Assembly: GCA_963514005.1 (NCBI GenBank)
Contig: OY740788.1
Span: forward strand, 88,164,001-88,228,000
Source of the DNA: Raja brachyura
Lineage: Eukaryota
Direction of reading: 5' to 3'
Length of the DNA: 64,000 nucleotides
In this document: positions 1-64,000 of the stretch, piece by piece
How the letters are laid out: each line of letters begins with the position of its first letter
How positions within the stretch are numbered: position 1 is the first letter of the stretch
Notes under the pieces: generated by a model
What the model was told of the DNA's origin: nothing
Databases searched by the model: none
What the model saw: only the letters and a program-made list of their open reading frames with translations
Translations under genes and position numbers: made by a program

Positions 1-488
1 GTACCCTCTCTATTTTGTTGACATCCTTCCTATAATTGGGCGACCAAAATTGTACACCATAAGATGGATTTAGATGGATATGAGCCAAATGCAGGCATGT
101 GGGACTAGGAACAAATGTCAACTTGGTCAGCATTGACATGTTGTACAGGTGTATGAAGCTATGACGATATCACTGGTAGAATGTTTAAAAACCCAAGGTA
201 ACCAACAGGTGAACATTGTACTGCAAGATCAACAACCTGAAACTTTGACTCCAAAGATAGACAGAGAAAGCTGGAATAACTCAGCGGGTCAAGCAGCCTA
301 TCTTTGGTGTCTATCTTCAGTGTAAACCAGCATCTGCAGTTCCTCCCTGCACACTTTGACTCGACAGCTCTTTCCATAGATACTGCAGGAACCATTAAGT
401 ATCCGCACCACTCTCCGCTATATTCCAGGATATTCACTCTCTCCTGCCTGGAATCTGCCGCTGATGTCTGTCTCTGGTTCATTTCCAG

Positions 489-640
489 TTTGTGGTCAGG
501 AGGACACACACTCTCAGGCAGAGGAGAGACTCTTCAAGCATCTCTTTACCGGGTACAACCGCTGGTCCAGACCTGTGGCCAACAGCTCGGATGCCGTCAT
601 TGTGAACTTTGGCCTTTCCATTGCCCAGCTGATCGACGTG
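489..640 (+). CDS. CHRNA2: nAChR alpha-2 subunit, coding exon 2 (..EERLFKHLFTGYNRWSRPV..LSIAQLIDV)
   Basis: tttccag acceptor, GTGAGA donor, 152 nt; RLFKHLF.GYNRW matches alpha2 rather than alpha4. The signal-peptide exon was not found and presumably lies upstream of the window. Confidence 0.9.
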
Positions 641-779
641 GTGAGATGCGTCTGGTTTAAGAGGCAGTGGGGATGGGGTGGAATGCCCTTTGTAGGAAAG
701 GATGTAACTGAGGAAGTCTACCAGCATGTATCACAGAGTGCAAGAAACCCGCAAGCTGCTTTCTGCCAAATAGTCAAAG

Positions 780-17286: not shown

Positions 17287-17635
17287 ATGGCCCTGGTACA
17301 ATCCCCAGAAGCTCTGTTGGTGCATGAAGGTGAAAGTGTGGAAATACTGTGTGCCCTGGAGAGCAGCAATGTCAAATACACCATGGCGAAGTTCCAGGGA
17401 CACTGGTACAACTCACACAATAAATTGGCATTGGATGGAATAATCCTCACTCTTTACCCTGATGGTACACTTTACAGGTCACCGGGCTATTCCGAGCGAT
17501 TTCAAGTTTCCAGGGACATGACCAGTAACAGCTATTTACTGACCATCAGAGAGGTGACGATCAATGACTCTGATGACTACATCTGTGGCATTTGGGGGAA
17601 CACCTTTGGAAAAGGAACCCAGCTGATTGTAACCA
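17287..17635 (+). CDS. V1: germline-joined VJ-type Ig V-set domain (open frame, abnormal splice acceptor)
   Basis: LVQSP..VEILC..HWY..SERFQVSRD..YLLTI..DSDDYICGIWGNTFGKGTQLIVT with a phase-1 A|GTGAGT donor; the acceptor homologous to V3 reads AC, not AG. Confidence 0.8.
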
Positions 17636-19938
17636 GTGAGTACTTTATGTTGCCCCTATTTCCACAAATGTTCCTTTGTTAACATTTCATAAGGAACCCT
17701 GATACAGTTTTTTATGTTCCACAGAAACATTCCTAATTAGAAATGTACTGTCATAGAATCATATGCAGCACATGGACAGGTCTGTTGACCCAACTCGTTC
17801 ACACCGAGTGAGAAGCCCATATACCCGTACCATTTGCCCACATTTGATCCATATCCCCATAAACATCTGCTATCTATGTAGCTGTCCAAATGTAGTTTGT
17901 CTTGTTATTGCACTTGCTTCTATTAAATATATGCAAATCCCATTTGCCCTCGTTTGACCCATACCCCCATAAACCTCTACAGTCTATGTAGCTGTCCTAA
18001 TATCTTTTTTAGTTTTGCTGTTGTACTTGCCTCAATTACTTTCATATGAGGGCCATCTCACCTTAAAGCTTGCCGACCAAGTTGGTATTCTGGGCTAGTC
18101 TCAGTTTTCAGCATTTAGTCCATATCCTACATAACCCTCCCTAGCCATATATCTGCCAAAATATATTTAAAACTCATAGTTGTATCCACTTCTATAGCTT
18201 CCTCTGGTAGCTCGTTCCATATAAGGACTATGCTCTAAGTGAAAAAGCTGTCCCTGAGGTCCCTCTATTATCTCTTCCCACTCACCTTAAGCTGAAGTCC
18301 TGTAGATTTGGATACTTCTACCCTTGGAAACATGCTGTGAATGTTCACTTTATAGATGCTTCACATAACCCTGTACACCATAATATGGTTATTCTTCAGC
18401 CTCTGCTCAAATGAAAATGATCTCAGCCTATCCAACCTCTCATTATAATTCAAGCATGCAAATCCAGGTACTATCATGGTGAATCTCTTCTCTACCCTTT
18501 CCAACTCAATGACATTCCTCTATGCCTGGACGACTGGAACAGCAACAGTACTCATGTATGGTCTCACCAAGGAAAAAGGACATCATGGTATCTCAAATGT
18601 AGTACTCAGTGCACTCCTCAATGAAGGTACACATGCTAAATGCCCTCTGCACCATCGTATCCACCTGAATCGCTACTTTCAGGGAAGCATGTACCTGCCC
18701 TCCCAGTTCATTCTGTGGTACAATACTCTCCAGGGGTTCACCATTTACTGTGCTAGTCATCCACCAGTTTCACATTCCAAAGTGCCACACCATACACTTG
18801 TCACTATTAAATTCCGTTTGGTATTTCTTGGCCCACCTTCACAACTGATCAAGATCTTGTTGGAAAGTTATACTTTATAATCTTCTAACCTATCTCCAAT
18901 AATGTATTATTAGTAAATCATTCCATTCTTTTTTTTAATCTTGACATTTATGGGGTTTTTTTCCTCTCTCTTTCTTACTTTCTATCAATATTAAAACAAA
19001 ATTAGAAGCAGAATGAATCCTCGATTAATAATATTAATAGTATGATTGATACACATGAAATGTTTTCACCATTATATGTGTTTGCTTCTAATAAAAATAT
19101 ATTAAAAAATAAAATTAAAAAAAAAGATCCTGGTGGAAACGTATCGTGTTGGATATTCGACCACACTGTACAGTTTATAACCCATTTTGGTGCCATCTTC
19201 AAAGTTTTGAGCAATATTAACTAGGTTGTCCTTGAAATCTTTAATATGGACACCAAACAATGAAAAACAGTGCACCCAGTGCCACCGCTGCAGAACAGCA
19301 CTCGTCACAGGCCTCCAATCAGAACAAAAAGCTCTACAAATACGCTTTGCGACAAATGCAAGGTCAACTTCCTGAGAGTAAATCCGTGGATCTGTGGGTC
19401 TGGATGGAGTCTTGGCCTCAACCTTAGAACCACGGGTCAGCTGGCAGAAGTATTCACAAACATCGTTCACCTTTCTCTACATCATGCTGAAGTTCCCAAG
19501 ACGTCAAATACTGCTATCATTCAGGTGCCAAATTAAAGTAAGGTCGCATGCCAGAGACAGGACATTTGGTGTTTCAATAACTCTCACCAACTTTTACAGA
19601 TGCACCATCAAAGAAAGCTCATGTTCTACAACCTTCCCCTGCCCCTCCTGTAATTGTCCTAACCTGACGATGTAGCAATTTACACCACCTGGCCCTTATC
19701 TGAATTAAACTCCATTTGCCATTCCTCCGCCCTTCATCCAGCTGATCAATATCTCTCTGCAATTTCCGTTTTAGTTTTTAGTGTCCAGAAACACAGAGCT
19801 GGAAATAAACCCTTCGGCCCATCGAGTCTGCTCTGCCCAGCGATCCCCGCACACTAGTACTATCCTCGATACATGTAAGAATAAACTAAACTGAACTGAA
19901 CCAATCTCTTCTGATCTTCAGTTGCTTAACACCCACAG

Positions 19939-20311
19939 ATCTAAGGCAGATACAGTCATGTTCCAATCACCAGAAGCTCTGATGTTGCGTGAAGGAGAAG
20001 GGGTGGCGATTCAGTGTGTCCTGGAGAGCATTAATGTGGCATATACTGCGGCAAATGCCAGTACACTGGTACATCGTCTGCAAAGGTTTAACACCCGATG
20101 GAATAGTACATGGAATAGCACTTAATCTTTACGTTAATGACAGTGTTCACAGGACACTGGGCTTCTCCGAGCAATTTCAGCTTTCTAGGGACGTCGCTAG
20201 TAACAGCTACTCACTGACCATCACCATCAGAGAGCTGGAGGTTAATGGCTAATTATATCTGTGGCATTTAGGGGAAATTATTTGGATGTGGAACCCAGCT
20301 GAATGTAACCA
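19939..20311 (+). pseudogene. V2: disabled VJ-type V exon
   Basis: Homologous to V1/V3 (FQSPEAL..IQC / VHWY..SEQFQLSRD..SYSLTI / NYICGI*GKLFGCGTQLNVT) but split over three frames, with TAG at 20269-20271. Confidence 0.88.
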
Positions 20312-22335
20312 GTATTGGTTCTTTAGTTTTTAATTTTAGAGATATTGTGCGGAAACAGGCCCTTTGGCCCACCGAGTCCGCACCGACCAGCGATCCCTAC
20401 ACATTAACACTATCCTACACACACTAGGGATTTTTTAAATTTATGCCAAGCTAATTATCTACAAACCTGTAGGTCTTTGGAGTATGGGAGTAAACCAAAG
20501 ATCTCGGATGAAACCCACGCGGTCACGGGGAGAACGTACAAAAACTCCATACAGACAGCACCTGAACCTGAACATACAGATCGAACCCGGGTCTCTGGCG
20601 CTGTAAGGCAGCAACTCTACCGCTGCACCCCCGTGCCACCCATATGATTCTATTTGGTTCTATTTCTAGTTAAGTTCCTGTATTAGCACCTCACGATGAA
20701 TGTGCTACCCTGTTATCAGTTCTAATGAGACCGTCATTAGAAGAAAAATGGGCTTACATTCATTCATTTTTAACTAATTACCGCGGATGACTTCACTGTG
20801 TCCTGAGATTGGGGACAATTAAGAAGGGAGAATAAATGCTGCCATTGACGGTGCCACATCATGGGAACAGATAAATATATTCAAATACACAATATTCACA
20901 AAAACTCCATTAATCCTTGATCCGACCTTTTGGCTCACCAGGTGATCTTTGCTGTGGTCCCCATCCCCTCACCGCCCTTGGTTCCCGCGTTACCCTTAAA
21001 CATATCTCTTCTGCCTCTTGTGCTCAACGAATCACTTACCAGCTTAACTATATATACGAAGCAACTGCAGATGCTGGTTTGCTCCAAAGACAGACACAAA
21101 AAGCAGTAGCAACTCAGTGGGTCAGGCAGCATCTCCAGTGAAAAAGAATAGGTGACGGTTCAGGTCGAGACCCTTCTTCAGACTGATAATCAGTGAAGAG
21201 GGAAACGAGAGTTATAGAAGGTACATCGAACAAATGAATGAAAGATGTGCAAAAAGCAACAATGATTATGGAAAGGTGGAGGCCACAATGGTCCATTGTT
21301 GGCTGTGGGGGAGCCGACAAAATCATTACGCTTAAACTACTTTCGTTTGAAAGAGAATTGAAAATATGTTTGAGCATTAACAAAGTGACCTCCAAGAGTT
21401 TGAAATATTTGCCAATCTATTTCCAACAAAACTCTGAGTGTGGCAGAATATTGGAGTTTTAATGCTTCAGATCCCAGCCTCCCTCAGTAGGTCCAGACAA
21501 TCTTTGATAACTCTCTTTCCAAATTCTGACCAATAGTCTCGGATCTGAATCGTTCCCTCTGTTCCTCTCTCCACAGATGTGTGACCTGCTGGGCATTTTT
21601 CGTTTCAGTTCCTACTTTTATATTCTATCCTGTTTGACATATTTCATTGCCTTCCTCATTACTTGCAAATTGGAGGGTTTTGTAACAGCCAACTACCTAC
21701 AGTGTGAAAGTTGAGAGAACTATTACTGTTCTCTCAGTTTGTCCTCACGGGGTGAAATAAGTCAGGGAATATAGAATATAGAACATGGAACATAGGACAG
21801 TTCAATAGCACAGGAACAGGCTCTTTGGCCCAACATGTGTGCCCAACATGCTGGCAGACAAAACTAATCTCATCTGCTAACACATAGCTTCTAAACCTCT
21901 GCCCACTACTTGCCCATTAATGTGGCAGTACAAATGCCTTTTACATGTTGCTAGTGTTTCTGGTTCCAATACTTCTTCTGGCAGCATGTTCATTTCCCCT
22001 CTCACCTCAGACCTGAGCTCTTTAGTATTTGATATTTCCATCATGGGAAAAAGGCTTCTACCCAAGCAAAGCCTGTCATAATTTTATAAATTACAACTGA
22101 AACCCAAAGTACATGCTATAACTTCAAGACAAGAGCTCAACTAAGAAAACCAAACCCAAAGCCAAAGTATTATCTAACTATCTAACTGAACAAAGTCTGA
22201 CTCTGGGAAATAAGTGGGTTAGGATCAGTGGACCACTCTTTCAAAGAGCTGGCACAGAACGATGGGCCAAGTGGCTTCCTTCTTACTGACATTACGTTTC
22301 CCTGATGTTTACCCAATGATGTGATTTCTTTGCAG

Positions 22336-22470
22336 TTTCTCCAACGAAGGAGAATCAAGGTGTGGTGATGTACCTTGCCTGGATCATTCTGCCTTTGGTG
22401 CTGGGAGTTCTTGCTGTTACTGGAGCCGTTTGCCTCATCAGATGCAGAGCTTCTGGAAGCCACCAGTCCT
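22336..22470 (+). CDS. Stalk plus transmembrane exon of receptor gene 1: SPTKENQGVVMYLAWIILPLVLGVLAVTGAVCLIRCRASGSHQS
   Basis: ttctttgcag acceptor, GTATGT donor, phase 1-1, 135 nt; about 25-aa uncharged hydrophobic helix followed by basic RCR. Confidence 0.82.
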
Positions 22471-22637
22471 GTATGTGTAACTAAATAATTCAGTCTGATC
22501 TGATTACTGTGTGGACTTAATGAAATTGGAAGGGCTGGATCCGATTGTCAAAGAGCTGTCATTATGCTGTTGGGCAGCAAAGTGGGATTCACAGCCCCGA
22601 GGCTGCTCTTTGTGAGACCTTGTTCTCTGTTTCACAG

Positions 22638-22711
22638 CCCAGTCCGGAGCGGCCGATGACCAGACCCCAGGACCAGTTTATGAAAACATTTCTGTGACAA
22701 GAAATGTCCCG
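22638..22711 (+). CDS. Cytoplasmic exon 1: (S)QSGAADDQTPGPVYENISVTRNVP
   Basis: ctgtttcacag acceptor, G|GTGAGT donor, phase 1 to 0 continuing the TM frame; YENI motif. Confidence 0.8.
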
Positions 22712-23875
22712 GTGAGTTCTGATGGTTTTCTGGGATAAGCAGACCTGTGCTGGGATCCCTCTCCCTGATGGTGTGTTATTGGCTTCCCATCAGGTATTTA
22801 CTCCACTCACTTTGTGGATCATTGAGTATTGTCGCAATGCCTTTATGATGTGTAAATGTACGTGGTGCATCTGTTGTTGATGGAGAGTGGGACTTGCACT
22901 GCTCGTGAGCAGGTGTGTAAGAACACACTACCAGGTCCAGCAACCCACTGAAGGTTCAGCTTCAGCTGTTTAACTTGAGAGGAGTTCAACGTCTGGATCT
23001 CTCCTGCTATTGTCTGCCCAGAACCATCCCCTCTGGCCACGCATATGGCCATCAGCTTCACTATTAGCACAACGACTTCAACTGTTGTTCACTTCAAACT
23101 AATTGGAGTGTTTAACCACAGTAAAGGCAGGTCCTTGATCAATATGGTTTCAGAATCCTTTCAAAAATCTCTCCCCATGCCTTTGTTTATTGTGAAATCT
23201 ACCCGCTGTGAATAAACTACCCACAGTGGATTAATCCTCTAGTAAGTTCTCTCCAAGTGCCACTGTGAACTTCTCCCTAATCACTAATGCATTTCCTCCA
23301 CCTCACAGCCAAACTTCCAGCTTGTTAACCATCAGCACAGGATCACCTCAAGGTGGGTGCTCAGCCCCGTACTCTGTACCCATTACTGTGTGGCCAGACA
23401 GATTTGCCCTCAGTACATCTGAAACTTGCATCTGTGACCATCGTCGATGCATCCAGAGAGAATGGTGAAAACTATTCTGATGATCTGCTCACAGTTTGAG
23501 AGTACATTTTCAGTGGTTTCCACTGCCCACTTTCCCCATGACTTCCTCTTTACACTCCACGCATTTGTGATGAAACAATCTCGTGGGGAAGTAGAAGAGG
23601 ACACAGTCACTTCTAAAACAGCAACGGGAACATCGGGTCTGAATGAACAGAAGTCTCATCCTTGCAAATCAAGTTTAAGAACATGTTTGCACTGATATTC
23701 TCCACCTTGACTCTGTTCCTCTGTGCAGTGGGTAAGTACAGTCCCAGGATGGGTCCCCCAGTCTGGGTTAGTTTCATCTGCTTTCAAGTTCCATTTACAT
23801 ATTGCAGTGATGTGTATCTACTATTTTATAGTTGAATATTTCTGTTTAAAATTGAGATTTGTGTTCTTGGTTCAG

Positions 23876-51495: not shown

Positions 51496-52842
51496 ACACT
51501 GCTTCTATGTTCTCCCACTTCTCATCCACTCCCTATACAATAGAGGCAATTTACAGAGGCCAACTAACCTACAAACTCGCACGTCTTTGGAATGTGGGAG
51601 GAAACCGGTGCACCCGGTGGAAACCCTTGTGGTCACACAGGGAGAACATGCAAACTCCACACAGACAGCACCTGAGATCAGGATTGAAGCCGGGTCTCTG
51701 GCTCTGTGAGGCAGCAGTCTTCATGCTCCAATGTGGCACCCACATTTGATGAAGTAAAGGGAAGCATTTGGCAGATGAAAACAGGAGAGACACTTGGGTA
51801 TAAAGAGAGCAAAAGACTACTTTCAATATAAATTAGGAGAGGAAAGGGACAAGAATAAATATCACTGACAGTCCGAATTAAGGAGAATCCCAAGGATTGA
51901 ACAATTGTATTAGAGTAAGAGGGTAACCAGGGAAAGAGTAGGAGCCAAGGAAAGTGAGGCTGTTACAAAGAACAATGGGGACCCGGCATGGGGGGGACGG
52001 TCGTGAGGGACGGTGGGAGAACAGAGTGGGAACTGGTGTGTGGGGGCACTTTAGTTTTAGAATCCTCTTCTGCGTTTGTTTGTCTGTTGTTTGTCCATTC
52101 GTTCTGGTTAAGGCGCTGTGCACACGGCAGCCAGCCAACACTTTTAATTTCAAGTATTTGTGTACCTTGTGTGTTGTGACTGTTGGCAGACCAATTTCCC
52201 TCCGGGGATGAATAAAATGTTATCGTATCGTATCGTAAAAGTGCTGCCAGATGCTGTGAAGTTTGGTATCTTCTGCCCGACAGGAGAGGGGACAAGTAGG
52301 AATGACAGGGGAGTGAATGGTCTTTCACGATGTTGGTTGCTTTCCCGAGGCAGCGTGGAGTGTAGGGTAGAGTAATTGCCAAACTAGGCTGTGATGTCAT
52401 CAATAGGATGCTTTATGTGGTCCATGTGTACACATTGGTAAGAGGTGTTGGAAGCATGCTGAATTTCCTTAGTCTGCTGTATCTGACTCTGCAACAGAAT
52501 CTTACATGTACTAAATGAATGTTACTAGAACTGCCAGCTTTGTTCCTGATTTACTGCTCAGTTTAACACACTGTGTACAGTCAACACACACTTACATGGA
52601 GCAGGATTTAACCTTTGATATTCAGTGTTTGTACTTTAGAGCTGTTGCTTTTACCAAAGGTATTCTTTGTCATTTCAGTGCAGAGTGAAAGAGCGAAGCT
52701 CAGGAGAAAACTAAAGAGTTTACAAATTGAGGATACATGTGCAGAACATTCATAAATATCCAACAGCTTTCATGCTGCCTTTTGTTTACAATTATTTTTG
52801 TGCTCATCATCTGTTCTGATCTTTGGTTGTTATTACCCACAG

Positions 52843-53193
52843 GTCTAACGGCAAACACATTCCTGATCCAATCCCCAGGAGCTCTGGTGGTGCGTGAAGG
52901 TGAAACAGTGGAGATACGGTGTGTCCTGAACAGCACCAGTGTGAAGGATATTGTGAACAAATTCCACGTTCACTGGTACAACTCACGTAATGGAGGAATC
53001 AAACTTAGTCTTTATGTGAGTGGCAAAACTTACAGGTCACCGGGCTTCTCCGAGCGATTTCAGCTTTCCAGGGACGACGCCAGTAACAGCTACTCACTGA
53101 CCATCAGAGAGGTGAAGATTGCCGACTCTGCTGATTACATCTGTTGCATTTGGAAAACTTTATTTGGAAATGGAACCCAGCTGAATGTAACCA
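52843..53193 (+). CDS. V3: intact germline-joined VJ-type Ig V-set exon
   Basis: cccacag|GT acceptor, A|GTGAGT donor, 351 nt, phase 1-1; FLIQSP..VEIRC..VHWY..SERFQLSRD..YSLTI..DSADYICCIWKTLFGNGTQLNVT. Confidence 0.9.
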
Positions 53194-53576
53194 GTGAGTA
53201 TTTAAATTGGTTCTATTTCCAATCCTAACATCACCAGGAATCATGACGTCATGTTGTCAGTTTTACAGAGACAGACATCATTAGAAGTTCACACTGCAAA
53301 ATGGAGAATGAAAATAGGCCACAATTATCTTTTAACTGAATAATGCAGATCACTCGGCACTGCGTTCTGAGACCAGGATGGAGAATGTAATTTGACATTG
53401 CCAGAGAGGTACACATAGTGTGGACAGATGAATGTAAAGAAATTACAGTATCGGTAGGTTAGTTTCTTCATGTGGAATCACTTTGCTTGAGTTTAGTTTA
53501 TTGTCACGTCTACCGAGGTACAGTGGAAAGCTTTTGTTGCCCGCTAACCAGTCAGCGGAAAGACAATACATGATTA

Positions 53577-56500
53577 GAAACATAGAAAATAGGTGCAGGA
53601 GGAGGCCATTCGGCCCTTCAAGCCAGCACCGCCATTCATTGTGATCATGGCTGATCGTCCGCTATCAATAACCCGTGCCTGCCTTCTCCCCATATCCATT
53701 GACCCCACTAGCCCCTAGAGCTCTATCCAACTCTCTCTTAAATCCATCCAGTGATTTGGCTTCCACTGCCCTCTTTGGCAGGGAATTCCATAAATTCACA
53801 ACTCTCTGGGTAAAAAAGTTTTTTCTCACCTCAGTCTTAAATGGCCTCCCCTTTTTTCTAAGTCTGTGGCCCCTGGTTCTGGACTCACCCAACATTGGGA
53901 ACAGTGTTAAAGAAAGAACTGCAGATGCTGGAGAATCGAGGGTTACACAAAAAGCTGGAGAAACTCAGCGGGTGCAGCAGCATCTAAGGAGCGAAGGAGA
54001 TAGGCGACGTTTCGGGTCTGAAGAAGGGTCTCGACCCAAAACGTCGCCTATCTCCTTCGCTCCTTAGATGCTGCTGCACCCGCTGAGTTTCTCCAGCTTT
54101 TTGTGTAACCCCCAACATTGGGAACACTTTTGCATGCATCTAGCTTGTCCAGTCCTTTCATACTTGTATATGTTTCTATAAGATCCCCCCTCATCCTTCT
54201 AAACTCCTGTGAATACAAGCCTAGTCTTTTTAATCTTTCGTCATATGACAGTCCCGCCATCCCAGGGATCAATCTCGTGAACCTACGCTGCACTGCCTCA
54301 ATCACAAGGATGTCCTTCCTCAAATTAGGAGACCAAAACTGTACACAAGACTCCAGATGTGGTCTCACCAGAGCCCTATACAACTGCAGAAGAACCTCTT
54401 TACTCCTGTACTGAAATCCTCTTGTTATGAAGGCCAACATTCCATTAGCTTTCTTCACTGCCTGCTGTACTGCACGCCAACTTTCAGTGACCGGTGTACA
54501 AGGACACCCAGGTCTCGCTGCACCTCCCCCTTACCTAACCTAACCCCATTGAGATAATAATCTGCCCCTTTGTTTTTGCTGCCAAAGTGGATAACCTCAC
54601 ATTTATCAATATTATACTGCACCTGCCATGCATCTGCCCACTCACTCAACCTGTCCAGGTCACCCTGCAACCCCCTAACATCCTCTTCACAGTTCACACT
54701 GCCACCCAGCTTTGTGTCATCCGCAAACTTGCTAGTGTTGATCCTAATTCCCTCTTCCAAATCATTAATATATATGGTAAACAGTTGCGGCCCCAACACC
54801 GAGCCTTGCGGCACTCCACTCGCCACTGCCTGCCATTCTGAAAAGGACCCGTTCACTCCTACTCTTTGCTTCCAGTCTGCCAACCAATTTTCTATCCATG
54901 TCAACACCCTACCCCCAATACCATGTGCTCTAATTTTAGTCACCAGTCTCCCGTGCGGGACCTTATCAAAGGCTTTCTGAACGTCTAGATACACTACATC
55001 CACTGGCACCCCTTCATCCATTTTACTTGTCACATCCTCAAAAAATTCCAGAAGATTAGTCAAGCATGATTTCCCTTTCATAAATCCATGTTGACTTGGA
55101 CTAATCCTTTTACTGCTATCCAAATTCCCCATTATTACCTCTTTAAAAATTGACTCCAGCATCTTTCCCACCACCGAAGTCAGGCTAACTGGTCTGTAAT
55201 TCCCCGTTTTCCCTCTCGCTCTTTCTTGAAAAGTGGGATAACATTAGCTATCCTCCAATCCACAGGAACTGATCCTGAATCGACTGAACATTGGAAAATG
55301 ATCACCAATGCACCCACTATTTCTAGAACCACTTCCCTGAGGATCCTGGGATGCAGACCATCAGGCCCAGGGGATTTATCATCCTTCAGTCACATTAGCC
55401 TCCCCAATACTATTTCTCGCCAAATGAAAATTTCTTTCAGTTCCTCTACCCCCTTAGATCCTCTGTCCAGTACATCTGGGAGATTGTTTGTGTCCTCCTT
55501 AGTGAAGACAGATCCGAAGTAGCTATTCAACTCTTCTGCCATTTCCTTGTTGCCCATAATAATTTCACCCATGTCTGCCTTCAAGGGACCCACATTTGTC
55601 TTTGCTACTCTTTTTTCCTTAACATATCTAAAGCAGCTTTTACTGTCCTTCTTTATATTCCTGGCCAGCTTCCCCTCGTACTTCATCTTTTCAGCCTGTA
55701 TTGCCCGTTTTGTTTCCTTCTGTTGTCCTATGAAAGTTTCCCAATCCTCCGGCTTCCGGCTACTCTTTGCTGTGTTATACATCTTATCTTTTAGTTTTAT
55801 TCTATCCCCAACTTCTCTTGTCAGCCACGGTTGCCTCCTACTCCCCTTAGAATCTTTCTTCCCTTTTGGAATGAAATGATCCTGCGTCTTCCGGATTATG
55901 CCCAGAAATTCCTGCCATTGCTGTTCCACCATCATTCCTGCTAGGATCCCTTTCCAGTCTACCTTGGCCAGCTCCACTCTCATGCCTTCATAATCCCCTT
56001 TGTTCAGCTGCATCACTGCCACTTCCGATTTAACCTTCTCCTTCTCAAATTACAGATTAAAACTAATCATATTATGATCACTACCTCCAAGCGGTTCCTT
56101 TACCTCGAGTTCTCTTATCATATCTGGTTCATTGGACAACACTAAATCCAGAATTGCCTTTTCTCTGGACGGCTCCATTACAAGATGCTCTAAGAATCCA
56201 TCTCGGAGGCATTCTACAAACTCTCTTTCTTGGGGTCCTGAACCAACCCGATTTTCCCAGTCTACCTGCATATTGAAATCCCCCATCACCACAGTGGCAT
56301 TACCTTTGTTACATGCCAGTTTTAACTCCTGCTGCAACTTACACCCTACATCCCGGCTACTATTTGGGGGTCTGTAAATAACACCAATTAGTGTCTTCTT
56401 GCCTTTACAATTCCTCAACTCAATGCACAGTGACTCTACCTCGTCAGTCCCTATGTCTTCCCTCACAAGGGACTGAATTCCATCCCTCACCAGCAGAGCT

Positions 56501-58470
56501 TCCCCCCCCCCTCCTCTGCCCACCTGCCTGTCCTTTCTATAGGATGTATAACCCTGAATATTAAGTTCCTAAGATCCTCCTGCAGCCACGTCTCAGTAAT
56601 CCCCACAATGTCATATCTACCAACCTCTAACCAAGCCTCAAACTCATCTACTTTACTTCTTATAGAAACATAGAAAAATAGGTGCAGGAGTAGGACATTC
56701 GGCCCTTCGAGCCTGCACCGCCATTCAATGTGATCATGGCTGATCATCTAACTCAGTATCCCATACCTGCCTTCTCTCCATACCCCCTGATCCCTTTAGC
56801 CACAAGTGCCACATCTAACGCCCTCTTAAATATAGCCAATGAACTGGCCTCAACTACCTTCTGTGGCAGAGAATTCCAGAGACTCACCACTCTCTGTGTA
56901 AAGAATGTTTTCCTCATCTCGGTCCTAAAGGAATTCCCCCTTATCCTTAGACTGTGACCCCTTGTTCTGGACTCCCCCAACATCGGGAACAATCTTCCAG
57001 CATCTAGCTTGTCCAACGCCTTAAGAATTTTGTACGTTTCTATAAGATCCCCCCTCAATCTTCTAAATTCCAGCGAGTACAAGCCGAGTCTATCCAATCT
57101 TTCCTCATATGAAAGTCCTGACATTCCAGGAATCAGTCTGGTGAATCTTCTCTGTATCCCCTCTATGGCAAGGATGTCTTTCCTCAGATTTGGAGACCAA
57201 AACTGTACGCAATACTCCAGGTGTGGCCTCACCAAAACCCTGTACAACTGCAGTAGAACCTCCCTGCTCCTATACTCAAATCCTTTCGCTATGAATGCTA
57301 ACATACCATTTGCTTTCTTCACTGCCTGCTGCACCTGCATGCCTACTTTCAATGACTGGTGTACCATGACACCCAGGTCTCGTTGCATCTCCCCTTTTCG
57401 TAATCTGCCACCATTCAGATAATAGTCTACCCTCATGTTTTTGCCACCAAAGTGGATAACCTCACATTTATCCACATTATACTGCATCTGCCATGCATCT
57501 GCCCATTCACTCAGCCTATCCAAATCACCCTGCAGCCTCCAAGCATCCTCCTCACACCTAACTATACCCCCCAGCTTGGTGTCATCTGCAAATTTGGAGA
57601 TGTTGCATTGAATTCCCTCGTCCAAATCATTAATATATATTGTAAATAGCTGGGGTCCCAGCACTGAGCCTTGCGGTACCCCACTAGTCACTGCCTGCCA
57701 TTCTGAAAAGGACCCGTTTACTCCTACCCTTTGCCTCCTGTCTGCTAGCCAGTTCTCTATCCACATCAATACTGAACCCCCAATACCGTGTGCTTTAAGT
57801 TTGTATGCTAATCTCTTATGCGGGACCTTGTCGAAAGCCTTCTGAAAGTCTAGATATAACACATCCAATGGTTCTCCCTTATCCACTCTACAAGTTACAT
57901 CCTCGAAAAATTCTATCAGATTTGTCAGACATGATTTACCTTTCATAAATCCATGCTGACTTTGTCCAATGATTTCACCACTTTCCAAATGTGCTGTTAT
58001 CCCATCTTTAATAACTGACTCTAGCAGTTTCCCCACTACCGATGTTAGACTAACTGGTCTGTAATTCCCCGCTTTCTCTCTCCCTCCTTTTTTAAAAAGT
58101 GGGATTACGTTTGCTACCCTCCAATCCTCAGGAACTACTCCAGAATCTAAGGAATTTTGAAAAATTTATCACTAAATTATACTTCGCGCATTCATATACA
58201 ATACTTTTAATTCCTTACGCATCTCTCCTCTCACATCGATCCCTATTACACTTGGCCATACTCTCCTATCCCTTTGTGAGCTTCCTTTCCCATTAATTCT
58301 GTGGTCATTAACCATCCCTTTACTCTCTTTCCCTTTAACTCCATCGTTGACTATCCCATTTGACACCCCACCCCCCTTATTCAGTTTAAAACCACCCGTG
58401 TAGCAGTGGCAAACCTGCCTGCCAGAATGCCGGTCCCCCACCTGTTAAGATGCAATCCGTCCCTTTTACA
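53577..58470 (-). mobile_element. CR1 LINE (ORF2) with a nested younger CR1 (about 56660-58170) and a hairpin insert; fills most of the V3-V4 intron
   Basis: Outer APE split at YMNARSI|IRSKVDE; inner ORF 56753..58036 is 427 aa of RT; outer ORFs span 53665-56523. Confidence 0.88.
53904..54110. mobile_element. 207-bp foldback insertion with a 16-bp TSD
   Basis: CCCAACATTGGGAACA at 53888-53903 and 54111-54126; 78-bp arms at 53941-54018 and 54033-54110. Confidence 0.9.
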
Positions 58471-58784
58471 ATCGAGCCATCCACAGTTTATACACAGTCA
58501 TTGTTAGTTGCACCATCTGCCACACTGAGATCAATTACTCGACGGTCAGCATGGGCTCAGTGGGCTGAAGGGCCTGTTTCCACGCTGCATCTCTACACTA
58601 AAGTAAACTACACATTACCACCTCAATGATCTATTTGTACTATTTCCATACATTCTTATTCCTCCAACATACAGAGATCTGCTTATCTCTGTGTAGAGCG
58701 CAACAAAGGACTAAATACACGACTAAACAAAGCTAAATGAAAAATGAAATCCCCATTGTGAGGCAACACCTCCCAACACTGGGG

Positions 58785-58809
58785 GAGAGAGAGAGAGAGA
58801 GAGAGAGAG
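58785..58809 (+). repeat. (GA)n microsatellite
   Basis: Directly visible; other simple repeats are (CTATTTAT)n near 26340-26372 and (TATCG)n near 52219-52236. Confidence 0.9.
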
Positions 58810-59005
58810 TGAAAGATAATCGTGAACAGGGAGAAAGTTGCAATCAGCTGCAATCATGATTTTAATATCAGTTGCGAACCAAGTTAGCATCACTTTTACA
58901 TGAGGTTATCTAATGACCAAGGATGAATGTATTTTAAGTTGAAACACATACAGTATTTAGCACCCCCAACATTAGTGTTCATCTATTGATATTTTCCCTT
59001 TCAAG

Positions 59006-59350
59006 TTGCAAACCCTCCGATCCTGATCCAATTCCCGAGGCTGGAGCGTGTCACTGAGGGTCACACGGCACGGTTATGGTGCTCCATGGAGAACGCTGAA
59101 GTGGGAAATACTGACGTCCACTGGTACCAAGAACTACCCGGGCAGGACATGGAGTGGGTTTTAACACACGAGGCAGGAGGCAGCGTACGAAGGAGACCAG
59201 GCTTCACTGAGCGGTTCCAGCCATTCAAAGACGTCTCCAACAGCAGCTTCATCCTGAATGTCACAAACGTGATGCTGAATGACTCTGCCGTCTATTATTG
59301 CACAGTGTGGGGAGATATCAGAGGGAACGGGACCCAGCTCAACGTAACCA
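59006..59350 (+). CDS. V4: intact germline-joined VJ-type Ig V-set exon (divergent subtype)
   Basis: ccctttcaag acceptor, A|GTAAGT donor, 345 nt, phase 1-1; ILIQFP..ARLWC..VHWYQELPGQDMEWVL..TERFQPFKD..FILNVTNV..DSAVYYCTVWGDIRGNGTQLNVT. Confidence 0.9.
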
Positions 59351-59899
59351 GTAAGTACAAATTATAGTTGGTTTTATTCACCTATGTGTAACTATATTGG
59401 GTGTAATTCACTTCCCTTGAATTGGCACATGTACCGGGAGTACTGAAAGAATAAGGAGATCATACTGGAGCTTAAGGTACAGGAGAGCAGAACGACAACT
59501 TGTCATGGCTTTAGATTAACCAATGCTGCCTCCTTCTTGCAATGGTTCAATATTTGTTACATATGCAACTGTGCAGTGAAATTATTTTTGCATATATTAC
59601 ACGTACTGGCACCGCCATGTTTTGGCGCCATCACTCAAAGTGCAACGTCCGGTCACCCCACAGCTCGATGTACTGGAGTAGTTCCCACGAACCAAGCCTT
59701 AGGGCAGTTTATTGAATCTGCAGAACATAATTTGATTTATCATGCAACGGCTGATTTCCCAAGCCTCAGGCTGAACCAGCAAAGTTACGTTTAAAATAAC
59801 CATATAAGGTTGTATAATTATTCCCGACAAATCGGGAATCAACGTTGCATAAACCAATCACACAATAGAACCTAAAACGGGCACTTAATGACTTTATTT

Positions 59900-62540
59900 G
59901 AAGCCCTGATTGATGAAGCAAATGGAGGAAGACATAAAATACTGCCTTCTCCTTGTAGCGAGAATGAATGTCTTGCCACTGTTATGCCACATATTTTGCA
60001 ACCTGTGAATAAGCATAAAAAACAAACATGTCTATATTTGGTGTTCCATGGAACCAGAGTTTCTTAATACGGTGTGATTCAACACCCATTCTGTGTTGCC
60101 ATTGACCTATACTTGATGATTCTCCTGTGGCAAACGAGGTTATGTAACCATTACAGCAGTCTTTAATTGATTGCACCATGTGACTAACATATGCCGCCAT
60201 CATAATGTATCAACATGAAGCTGAGCACGCAGATATGCATATTTGCTCAATCACTCTTTAACCCATACAATGCGCATAGGGTCTATAGATAGTTGATACC
60301 AATAAGTGAAGAATTGGTAAGTAATGCAAATCTGCTCCACCTCCAAACTCAAGCTGATATTCGCAATTTAATGTTTGCCGGGAACGGCAACTGTGGCCCG
60401 ATTTCCGAGCCAGTCTTGCAAGACAATCCTGGCCCTTGTGCTGAGCCTGCCCAATTATAACCTGCTTGGAATGCTAGTATTGTCCAGTTTTACACGGTTG
60501 GACCCCTCAAAGTAGATGATAATGTCTCAATCATTTGTATTATCCAACCAAGTGTACATCTTACCAAATTGTACATGGTCCCTTAGTTATAGAGTAACAC
60601 AGGTAATATGCGTGGAACCTCTGGCCAACTTCCATGCTGCCACCAGCTTCAGTGAACCGCTACTGCCGAACTATGAAGCCTTATTCGTTCAATAGCTTGT
60701 GCTTCGTCCTCCAGGTATCGCCTATGAAACAGGTCTTACCCAAATAGAAGATTTGGCGGCCGGCTCTATGTCCACCTGATAGCAGTGTTCACTGCATATG
60801 TGTTTGAATGGCAACCTTGCTACCAAGCATGGTACATCTGGCATGTGCCCATCATCCCTTGGGCATGCACCACGGCTATACCCGCAGACTCGGCGTTAGA
60901 TTATACTGACCCGGCATGCTCCCATATTACATGAGGGAGACATTAAGCAGGCCTGCTACAAGGCGCTGCTGGCACGGCTTCAGCAATACGCCAACTTTGC
61001 CATGGACCCAGCGTCAGACTAATACTGACATGGCATGCTCTCGTCCTACATGAGGGAGACATTAAGCAGGCCTGCTACAAGGCGCTGCTGGCACAATTTC
61101 CCATTTTTAGGGCCATTAGCACCATTTTGCAATACAATGAAATATTTACCTAACAACTACTGGAGCAGTAATGAATACTGGTTGTCCATCATTGTGACTT
61201 TGGTAGCTTCAGCCGGTAATAACAAGTTGTGTTAACAATGACCTACATGGCACTTTATAGTTTACCATTTAACAGGATGACAGTTCTCCTACTTGCACAG
61301 CTGAATCCCATCTATACTATTGCCAATTAGTCTAATGAATAGAAGGCTGCTTTATAACAACAAGGCTGTTACAGGAGTCTATTGACTGCAATCTGTTGCC
61401 CAGGCCGGCCTCAATGGCCAATTGAATAGCTAAAGGTAAATCCCAATGTCCTACATGTCTATTTGATAACTTAATCTTAACTGGATAGAGGAGCCCAATT
61501 TCTCAAATATAGTTTGAGATTTAAACAGTGGATTTTAGCACATACATTGCCAGTGTTTTTGAACTCTAAGTAGTCCTCTTTGAATGCTGTTTTTGACATC
61601 ATTCTGTTATATTGCCTTATCCTAGCAATGCCTTCTCAAATATACCCCATGATCACTATAAATGGGAATACCCAATAAAAACAATTGTTAATCTACCATC
61701 TTTCATAATGAACGGGCCACGCCTGCCATCATGGCTACACTGCCATGGACTTGACATCCCCACTAAGCAGCCTATTCCCATGAAGCAGCCCTGAACAAAG
61801 GTACTGCTGGCGCGGCCTTTCCCATAGGCTAGTATTTGCCATAGATTTGGCGTCCTCATGAAGCAGCCCTGAGCAAAGGTGCTGCTGGCACAGCCTCTCC
61901 AATAGGCTAGCCTGCCATAACTTGGCATCGCCCTGGAGCAGCCCTGAGCGAAGGTGCTGCTGGCACAGCCTCTCCAATAGGCTAGACTGCCATAAATTGG
62001 CATCGCCCTGGAGCAGCCCTGAGCGAAGGTGCTGCTCGCACAGCCTCTCCAATAGGCTAGACTGCCATAACTTGGCATCGCCCTGGAGCAGCCCTGAGCG
62101 AAGGTGCTGCTGGCACAGCCTCTCCAATAGGCTGGCAAGGCCATAAGCTTTGCTGCTGGCGCGGGCTCTCACATTGACCCGCGCTGGCCCAACTCCTGCT
62201 GTAGGAGTGTCTCTAAAACCCAACGTCTAGAATCACTGACCATCTTATCAGTGACTCCGATTGCGAAACCCGACATTCGCCAGCCTCCCACTTCCGCGGT
62301 CAGACCAGGCCCTTAGCTGGTTCCTTCGTCAACCGTCGCAAAACATCCGGCGAAAACCGAGGTTCCTGCAGGAGACCTAAAACAGGTAAGAAATACCACT
62401 TACCTGAAGTTTAAACTTAGCGCTGGAGGAGCTGTGCTGCTCCAACCGGTCGACCTGCACCAATGCGTCTGACGTAATGACGCACGTGTGGCGGGACGGG
62501 GTTCTTCACGTAGCCACTCACGTGACTCCGAAGTAAAATA
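59900..62540 (-). mobile_element. DIRS-type element, copy 2 (5' part, degenerate)
   Basis: Its terminus 62503-62540 is the reverse complement of the copy-1 ICR segment 38780-38816; RNase H/MT-like peptide (..PNIDMF) in ORF 59982..60203; lower boundary uncertain. Confidence 0.65.
61785..62146. repeat. 75-bp tandem repeat, about 4.8 units
   Basis: Units start at 61785, 61863, 61938, 62013 and 62088; 25-aa repeats in the ORF track. Confidence 0.95.
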
Positions 62541-62544
62541 TGTC

Positions 62545-63075
62545 CCATTTATTGTTACTTCTTTTGTCACAATAACAGATCGTCTTAACTAGGCTCTGGG
62601 ACAATTCACTAATTTAAACCAAGGTATTTCCCAAATCCTAGTCTCATTTACCTTCCATCCTGGCTTTTTAGGCCATATGCCACCCTTTAAATATGGGTCC
62701 TTGAATCTGATTAGTTGCTGTTTTATTGCAAAAACAGTGTAAGGCCAGAATCTCAGTAAGGTTAAGGGGTTTTGTCAAGAGGGGTATTTCTCCTCCACCA
62801 TTATATGGGATGTGCGTACACAGCCAGCATACACTTATTATCACGAAGGGCAAATTCAAAACTCATAATAAACAAATTATTTCCCCAAGTCCAGTCCATC
62901 TGGTCCAACCCCAGAATAAAAAAAGAGGGTCAATAGCCCCATTTCTTGGTTCTCTGACCCGTTTACACTCAATCAGATGTATCCACTTCACGGCAGTTGA
63001 TGTTGTTGGTAGCACCTGCTACAGTCCCTTTCAAAACAGTCTCAATTTCTTCTGATCCCAGTGCCATATCAGTAC
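62545..63075 (-). mobile_element. ERV remnant: integrase C-terminus followed by env SU N-terminus
   Basis: KGL*QVLPTTSTAVKWIHLIECKRV (degenerate GPY/F module), then CWLCTHIP in ORF 62668..62859. Confidence 0.65.
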
Positions 63076-63344
63076 TTAGTCTGATAGTAAAGGGCCTTGT
63101 CCCACTAACGTGACTATACAGTGACTGTCTTCGACCTTCAAGCTCCAGGGCACTCGCCTGAAAAACCTTGAGCTGGTTCGACCGTCAGCGATGAAACTGC
63201 GAGCTGGATCGACCGACCGCACACACACACGCACACAAACACATCGCACAGGCGGTGGCCAGGGAAAGCGGGGGGAGTGCTGTCTGAAATTCACGCCCGC
63301 GATGAACAGGATAACGCGTAGAGAACGCGTAGAGGGGGGTTGCA

Positions 63345-64000
63345 ATAGACAATAGGTGCAGGAGTAGGCCATTCGGCCCTTCGAGCCTGCATCGCCATTC
63401 AATGTGATCATGGCTGATCGTCCCCAATCAGTACCCCGTTCCTGCCTTTTCCCCATATCCCCTGACTCTGCTATTTTTAAGAGCCCTATCTAGCTCTCTC
63501 TTGAAAGCATCCAAAGACCTTCTTCCACCACCCTCTGAGGCAGAGAATTCCACAGACTCACCACTCTCTGTGAGAAAAAATGTTTCCTTGTCTCCGTTCT
63601 AAATGGCTTACTCCTTATTCTTAAACTGTGGCACCTGGTTCTGGATTCCCCCAACATCGGAACATGTTTCCTGCCTCTAACGTGTCCAAGCCCTTAATAA
63701 TCTTATATGTTTCAATGAGATCCCCTTCCAAATCCTTATAAACTCCAGAGTGTACATGCCCAGCCGCTCCATTCTCTCAGCATTTGACAGTCCCGCCATC
63801 CCGGAAATTAACCTTGTAAACCTACGCTGCACTCCCTCAATAGCAAGAATGTCCTTCCTCAAATTAGTGGACCAAAACTGCACACAATACTCCAGGTGTG
63901 GTCTCACTAGGGCCCTGTACAACTGCAGAAGGACATCTTTGCTCCTATATTAGATTTCTTTTGTTATAAAGGCGAACATGCCATTCGCTTTCTTCACTGC
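63345..64000 (-). mobile_element. CR1 LINE 3' part, runs off the window
   Basis: ORF 63677..63922 ([12 protein letters not shown]). Confidence 0.9.

Follow-up and report, generated by a model that had tools for sequence, protein, structure and literature searches.

A probable activating receptor with three V domains in a paired receptor cluster of the skate Raja brachyura, and the closeness of its V exons to immunoglobulin light chain sigma-2

The Locus and the V3-V4 Gene

The window analysed here is a stretch of 64,000 nucleotides from the skate Raja brachyura (assembly GCA_963514005.1, contig OY740788.1, here C8), C8:88164001-88228000; a window position is the C8 position minus 88164000. 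It contains two tandem exons, V3 and V4, each encoding an immunoglobulin (Ig)-type variable (V) domain together with its joining (J) segment, i.e., a VJ exon. A first-pass annotation of the window had taken them for parts of a probable multi-V-domain paralog. In all, the analysis covered 664 kb, comprising the window with 20 kb before it and 500 kb after it, and a further 80 kb at 89.2 Mb. V3 and V4 probably encode the first and second ectodomain of a single-pass leukocyte receptor that has three V domains and is likely to be activating. Its gene belongs to a paired cluster of genes with an immunoreceptor tyrosine-based activation motif (ITAM) or inhibition motif (ITIM), whose VJ exons may derive from the light chain isotype sigma-2.

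The exons were placed by mapping the leaders and tails of homologous proteins onto the contig. The resulting gene model has 8 exons and 461 amino acids, with GT-AG at all introns and one terminal stop. Its parts are given below, together with an exon remnant upstream of the transmembrane (TM) exon:

23683..23731, forward strand: leader exon with ATG, 16 codons plus 1 nt, and a phase-1 donor (split leader)
52843..53193, forward strand: V3, A-type VJ exon, membrane-distal and variable; opens with the remainder of the leader and has a private extra Cys
53194..59005, no strand: intron between V3 and V4, 5812 nt, with an older and a younger long interspersed nuclear element (LINE) and a hairpin resembling a short interspersed nuclear element (SINE)
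59006..59350, forward strand: V4, B-type VJ exon, conserved and glycosylated
59351..64000, forward strand: start of the intron after V4, which leads beyond the window to the remaining exons
C8:88241760-88242107: V5, the third VJ exon, C-type
C8:88247710-88247802: remnant of a V4-type exon, repeat-interrupted, 5' of the TM exon
C8:88250732-88250866: TM exon, without a charged residue
C8:88251034-88251107: tail exon with YxN
C8:88257580-88257621: first ITAM exon
C8:88257712-88257753: second ITAM exon, ending with the stop

Both V3 (351 nt, AG on the 5' side, GTGAGT on the 3' side) and V4 (345 nt, AG and GTAAGT) are stop-free and of phase 1-1, and each scores above the Pfam V-set threshold (E 3.7e-14 and 8.5e-15, respectively), which bears out their earlier description as open, symmetric VJ exons. 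The motifs first pointed out are also present: V4 has WYQ..PGQ..EW, RGNG, and five sequons (N78, 84, 91, 107, and 112), and V3 has YICC, along with WYNS and three sequons. RGNG does stand in place of FGxG, but a J motif other than FGxG is a family trait of V4-type domains, where Ser replaces Phe98 in 71 of 125. An AlphaFold model of V3 has a mean predicted local distance difference test (pLDDT) score of 91, and a fold search with this model gave antibody V domains as the best matches, as did sequence comparison of V3 and V4. RefSeq models from three skates share 91-95% identity with V4. The tandem arrangement is not a matter of chance, since the same order recurs nearby, where there are five other V3-type exons and 10 further open exons of the V4 type (90-99% identical).

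The leader lies within the window, 29 kb 5' of V3, and matches the leader of a little-skate model (P0034) at 82%. No leader had been recognised between V3 and V4, and a search of their intron for a leader-like phase-1 exon likewise gave 0 candidates; two separate genes are therefore ruled out. The first-pass annotation also expected a V-V(-...) ectodomain whose TM region and tail would lie past the 64 kb, and proposed inspecting the contig downstream. V, TM, and tail exons have all been found there, and the V3-V4-V5 ectodomain of the model has 14 sequons. It is very probable that V3 and V4 belong to one multi-V transcript. The multi-V structure proposed at first stands, but it is nothing unusual, being the rule in this family.

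The tail contains YxN and NxxYxxL-x7-YxxL, and a phase-0 intron splits the first ITAM module. The classical ITAM has the consensus D/E/N-xx-YxxL/I-x7-YxxL/I and an intron within the first module (PMC4536121, in part), and the tail of the V3-V4 gene agrees with both the consensus and the exon split. Judged by its sequence, the gene probably encodes an activating receptor.

RNA mapping was dominated by repeats; the runs are X1 and X2 from related organisms, and X11. A 538-nt contig from X1, which is RNA by guess, matches 52840-53193 with 25 differences and then continues with 31 unlike letters, and another X1 contig begins at 59007. This geometry would fit a splice from the A-type to the B-type exon in an assembly using 31-letter words. 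Matches to X2 contigs (probably DNA) end at 59350, with 69 letters following, and at a paralogous V5 donor, with 585 letters following. The related-organism contigs stop exactly at the V3, V4, and V5 donors.

The intron between V3 and V4 had been described as mostly nested CR1. It is indeed rich in repeats, 71% of it occurring at at least eight copies in the 664 kb, and holds two nested antisense LINE copies that match RVT_1 and endonuclease; the name CR1 is a presumption based on motifs. The elements are:

about 53575-58444, antisense: older LINE (RVT_1/endonuclease matches among the two copies)
56662-58175, antisense: younger LINE, inserted within the endonuclease region of its older counterpart
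53940-54111: SINE-like hairpin in the V3-V4 intron

A tandem repeat with a unit of approximately 77 nt was detected by self-BLAST at window 61778-62146.

The Gene Cluster

Seven genes of the family are found at 88.18-88.69 Mb of C8, flanked by a CHRNA2/4-type gene and by PTK2B, whose FAT exons lie at 89.20 Mb. Six of them have a leader, each 5' of a V3-type (A) exon, and in all six a V4-type (B) exon comes next, with no leader between A and B. The TM type of the V3-V4 gene is shared by four cluster genes, while in the other three a different TM is combined with a tail carrying ITIM and immunoreceptor tyrosine-based switch motif (ITSM). Among the four activating-type genes the ITAM is intact in two, stopped in one, and not found in gene 1. 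The cluster has paralogs with alike ectodomains and tails of presumably opposite signalling, as expected of a paired receptor family.

Not all the genes are complete. Gene 1 (window 17293-22711) has a V1 exon (to 17635) without a clear AG acceptor and a broken V2 exon (about 19946-20310). No damage is seen in its TM exon (22336-22470) or in the first exon of its tail (22638-22711), the ITAM exons and the leader were not found, and the next leader begins approximately 970 nt after its end. Gene 1 is likely to be a truncated duplicate. Gene 3 has a stop within the second ITAM exon (C8:88366274-88366309), and its V4- and V5-type exons are broken. The gene at C8:88385729-88417223 lies in inverted orientation; its ITAM is intact, and its second V4-type exon is frameshifted.

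An eighth, divergent gene of the family is found at C8:89223633-89261375 (89.22-89.26 Mb) and encodes two V domains followed by a TM. The second of these, of V4 type, opens a frame of 1903 amino acids that is rich in Asn, Ser, and Gly and has 95 sequons, resembling a giant mucin-like stalk. A similar model of 1999 amino acids exists in another skate (P0051). Genome searches gave no family exon between 88.73 and 89.20 Mb, an interval that was itself not read.

The exon at window 479-643 encodes part of an alpha subunit of the neuronal nicotinic receptor, for which alpha-2 and alpha-4 score equally. It is likely to be alpha-2 (CHRNA2), since PTK2B is nearby. Clusterin is found on C5, and the synteny with the human 8p21 block is therefore only partial. 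The octamer is absent 5' of the six leaders, but it is absent from three sigma-2 stretches as well, so this test is uninformative. ETS/PU.1-like sites are present 5' of every leader (window about 23530-23640 and five others), the copies being too alike for their conservation to be judged.

Conservation and Division of Labour Among the V Domains

Homologs were collected by a V4 search for longer proteins, which returned 81 of 176 candidates; of these, 80 are shark or ray proteins, and the remaining one carries no species name. They are predicted gene models with generic names, and their V types were assigned by best BLAST match. At least two V domains of the family are present in 76 of the 81. 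All 53 models with an A-type domain have A followed by B, and A comes first in 51 of them. An ITAM pattern is found in 20 of the 81 tails, in both sharks and rays. A profile search among 1.84 billion representatives added members from Callorhinchus and catshark, and the family thus spans sharks, rays, and chimaera. No clear member from outside the cartilaginous fishes was seen among 20 proteins looked up, most of which ranked in the top 150 of the representative search, and an atlas search gave generic V-set clusters only. Pfam detects three V-set stretches and no C1-set in P0034 and P0268, and a model from another skate (P0008) has the same leader-V-V-V-TM build with the same TM type.

The V types differ in how they vary. 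For the six A exons (V1 and the gene-8 exon excluded, pairs non-independent) the proportion of nonsynonymous differences (pN) is 0.087 and that of synonymous differences (pS) 0.057, a ratio of 1.55. Within loops resembling complementarity-determining regions (CDR), whose borders were drawn after inspection of the alignment, pN is 0.24, vs. 0.028 elsewhere. In ten B exons pN is only 0.011 and lower than pS (0.062; confidence interval of the difference -0.085 to -0.022). Since A is variable at the loops and B is conserved, A would be a variable tip for binding and B part of a conserved stalk.

Antibody light chain V domains (VL) pair with heavy chain V domains (VH) through Gln38, Pro44, Tyr87, and Phe98, and these residues are not kept in the family. 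Pro44 is present in 45 of 47 sigma-2 domains vs. at most 7 of 198 family domains, and position 87 of the C type is Asn in 27 of 51 and either Asn or Ser in 43. This loss argues for unpaired domains. The CDR3 has six residues in all 160 family domains where it could be parsed (38 of the 198 could not). A single match resembling a recombination signal sequence (RSS) was found in the 664 kb, and none at any V exon; with VJ joined in one exon as well, a rearranging locus is ruled out.

Kinship to Immunoglobulin Light Chain Sigma-2

The best matches of V4 in the genome outside the cluster are joined VJ exons on contigs C29 and C47, one of which is 83% identical to the little-skate type I light chain. 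Because of this likeness, and since constant (C) exons follow downstream, these exons are regarded as sigma-2. In skates all sigma-2 genes are germline-joined (PMC5192425 and PMC2193156, in part), and joined genes are also described from gar, coelacanth, and turtles, together with a length rule for CDR1 and CDR2 (PMC5985310, in part). V3, V4, and V5 have a mean identity to elasmobranch sigma-2 of 36, 42, and 40%, respectively, compared to 34-35% for coelacanth sigma-2, 23-31% for other groups of Ig and T-cell receptor (TCR), and 23-25% for the NCR3-like gene of the same genome. At the nucleotide level the V4 exon is 62% identical to a sigma-2 VJ exon over 311 nt. The leaders of the family and of sigma-2 share the Gly at which they are split. 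The C-W/W-C spacing is 13/58 in 17 of 17 sigma-2 domains and in 25 of 38 family domains (the V4 and V5 types), and the CDR1 of the V3 type is four residues longer. No C match was found in the 664 kb, while C exons were detected at all three true sigma-2 loci tested. That the family itself should be an Ig light chain is ruled out, as the C exon is absent and a TM and a tail are present.

Trees were computed from the V part (97 columns); the labels of the genome rows (lambda, sigma, TCR, IgH) are our own, based on motifs and on the presence of RSS, and the coelacanth chain was assigned to sigma-2 on similarity. With 70 rows the family and sigma-2 form a branch with support 99/97, within which each is a clade by itself (elasmobranch sigma-2 alone 100/99). 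A mixture-model tree of 60 rows, obtained from a set of 74 (see below) by dropping 14 more, with long outgroups and a highly divergent domain of the family among those dropped, gives 99/98 for the same branch, with coelacanth inside it and the inner order open. The family is the sister of elasmobranch sigma-2 and is not nested in it.

Two observations concern sigma-2 itself. A junction of six residues, patterned like the CDR3 of the family, is found in 3 of 47 sigma-2 domains, of which 15 could not be parsed; the three (P0126, P0127, and P0128) come from carpet sharks. The family is not nested among these in the best tree, and that placement has p = 0.068 in the approximately unbiased (AU) test. 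P0244 from Heptranchias is a divergent sigma-2-like light chain with an odd C region, and groups with one skate sigma-2 subtype.

The closeness of the family to sigma-2 is well supported by these comparisons; the direction of descent is not.

Proposed Function and Origin

In the receptor proposed here, the distal V3 would bind ligand through its variable CDR-like loops, while V4 and V5 would form a conserved, heavily N-glycosylated stalk without pairing of the VL-VH type. Clustering by ligand would lead to phosphorylation of the receptor's own ITAM. A phosphorylated ITAM recruits kinases of the Syk/ZAP70 type. Inhibitory paralogs with near-identical stalks would counterbalance the activating receptor, and the symmetric phase 1-1 exons would allow stalk length to change through duplication and skipping. 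As for the origin, a germline-joined VJ exon of sigma-2 type might have lost its C exon and moved onto TM and signalling exons before chimaeras and elasmobranchs split. Such a descent from a joined sigma-2 gene, suggested by sequence comparison, has in our judgement an even chance of being correct. The wider proposal, that a light chain VJ exon became a building block of innate paired receptors across the cartilaginous fishes, and that there has thus been traffic from adaptive to innate immunity while databases give the members wrong or empty names, could equally well go either way.

Two tandem V exons are by themselves ordinary for this family; of greater interest are the family as such and where it came from. 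Interest in single-exon VJ genes stems from the search for kin of the gene once split by the RAG transposon (PMC12227049, in part), and the present family is far nearer to one antibody isotype than is the NCR3-like gene of the same genome. Should its origin be a joined sigma-2 gene, then intact VJ exons can also arise through RAG instead of preceding it, and germline joining would gain a creative role. If the lineage is older, it is a strong new candidate for a relative of the VJ precursor.

Several results weigh against this reading. The tree alignment is short, and in a tree of 74 rows (16 dropped, 20 added, the very divergent domain included) the support for the branch of family and sigma-2 falls to 84/0. 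The AU tests reject no alternative (p = 0.068 to 0.39): the family may be placed outside all Ig and TCR V domains (p = 0.26 and 0.19) or with the NCR3-like gene (p = 0.29), and coelacanth in either place (p = 0.34 and 0.39). The 13/58 spacing is also found in 3 of 6 IgH rows. The excess of nonsynonymous change in the A exons is not significant (bootstrap confidence interval of the difference -0.003 to 0.059), and pS in the loops is also high (0.18), so patchy gene conversion may explain the variation. The lone Cys and atypical CDR3 of V3 could mark a decaying copy. The 53193/59006 joint, which was to be looked for in transcripts, is absent among the joints listed (15 of 621 and 15 of 84), and in X11, a sure RNA run of which approximately 6% of the reads were covered, the depth is 0 on V3 and <1 on V4.

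Alternative Explanations

The family could be a never-rearranged relic of a VJ gene from before RAG, in which case sigma-2 would be the slowest of the Ig V lineages and the likeness would consist of retained ancestral traits. The AU tests, which do not reject a placement outside all Ig and TCR V domains, the fixed six-residue CDR3 and lack of RSS at the V exons, the absence of nesting within elasmobranch sigma-2, and a split leader like that of UrIg2 (PMC12227049, in part) all agree with this. The best trees, however, place the family within the Ig/TCR radiation as the sister of one isotype, the enclosing branches having 91-94/75-84 (unstarred), and the profile search brought up no clear member from outside the cartilaginous fishes among the proteins looked up. 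Nor is the locus on the MHC class I contig or with the sigma-2 loci. Joined sigma-2 donors were moreover available, because the genes are germline-joined in several vertebrate lineages (see above), and the same junction pattern occurs in the three carpet-shark chains. A relic of this kind is regarded as less likely.

Within a real family, the V3-V4 copy itself is unlikely to be young, decaying, rarely used, or made only in a short or secreted form. Decay is certainly seen in the cluster, in the truncated gene 1, the stopped ITAM of gene 3, and several broken V exons, and V3 has its lone Cys and no X11 read. Against this, no damage is seen in any of the eight exons, at their splice sites, or in the upstream region, the V4 type is under purifying selection, and P0008 from another skate shares the V-V-V-TM build.

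Still less likely is that the cluster represents a divergent, translocated branch of shark NCR3 (NKp30), maybe among the published nurse shark NCR3 genes. Such a branch would share the single-exon VJ, and the AU test does not reject the grouping, with one NCR3-like row in the tree. The genome has, however, a separate gene on C25, beside MHC class I, for which NKp30 is the best single-domain PDB match. This gene, with the low identity to V3-V5 given above and a spacing of 11/49, never joins the family in the three trees, and neither V3 nor V4 has NKp30 among its 60 top-ranking PDB hits. The TM of the V3-V4 gene has no charged residue. Of 12 MHC class I matches, seven are on C25, five on three other contigs, and none on C8; a genome search for MHC class II gave no match anywhere. 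NCR3 is described as MHC-linked and as the root of the V tree (PMC12227049, in part). The family is thus probably not NCR3. Several tandem NCR3-like VJ exon copies are present at C25:36776000-36806921. Further along the same contig there are V exons that are presumably butyrophilin-like.

That the extra Cys of V3 forms a functional interchain or additional intradomain disulfide, as the first-pass annotation proposed, is highly improbable: the Cys is truly there, and in five Callorhinchus sequences (P0222, P0230, P0246, P0251, and P0268) a Cys after the second canonical one occurs together with a Cys at the J-Phe position, likely a cross-strand disulfide closing the CDR3 that the site can thus host, but Gly occupies the position in V1, in each of the five other V3-type paralogs, and in 21 of the 22 homologs from other species (Ala in the remaining one), and V3, V4, and V5 offer no spare partner Cys. 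As V3 moreover has Phe at the J position, its Cys is probably a private, unpaired substitution.

Comparison with Known Receptor Systems

No description of the family was found in the available parts of the literature, including PMC10751288, PMC11599192, PMC2435157, and PMC12272517; a study of shark NCR3 (Kinlein, 2021) could include these genes. The nearest V sequence is that of sigma-2 (also called sigma-cart, type I, or NS5), which shares with the family the single-exon VJ, the split leader, and the 13/58 spacing. A sigma-2 gene consists of one V and one C1 exon and lacks a TM, whereas the family has tandem V exons, a TM, and an ITAM or ITIM/ITSM tail, but no C1. The family has further lost the VL-VH interface, has many sequons, and is located on another chromosome.

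NKp30 has a single V domain and a charged TM residue for its adaptor, and binds B7H6. Like the present family, NCR3/NKp30 is a non-rearranging, single-exon VJ gene predicted to be activating, but the family is multi-V and lies off the MHC class I contig, and the V3-V4 gene has three V exons, its own ITAM, and an uncharged TM. UrIg2 has its VJ in one exon, a split leader, and a plastic number of domains (PMC12227049, in part), all of which it has in common with the family. UrIg, UrIg2, and PRARP, however, have C1 domains and are found in the MHC or antigen-receptor complex, whereas the family is V-only, carries signalling tails, and lies by CHRNA2 and PTK2B. A UrIg type is ruled out for the family, as it has no C1.

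When it comes to organisation, the family is like NILT and NITR of teleosts, MDIR of skates, and APAR of hagfish, all of which form clustered activating and inhibitory pairs with variable domain number. NILT receptors have a cytoplasmic ITAM or ITIM, and NITR have a V-I build. One NITR-like row (our own label) in the 74-row tree fell away from the family. The domains of MDIR and NILT are of the CD300/TREM/NKp44 kind (PMC3031540, in part), while those of the present family are Ig-light-chain-like VJ domains with the canonical Cys pair only; from MDIR it is set apart by description. By analogy, the family is likely to work as the paired receptor families MDIR and NILT do. Whichever history is correct, the family may serve cartilaginous fishes as a paired receptor system comparable to KIR and LILR, with a variable tip domain and ligands that can be screened for.

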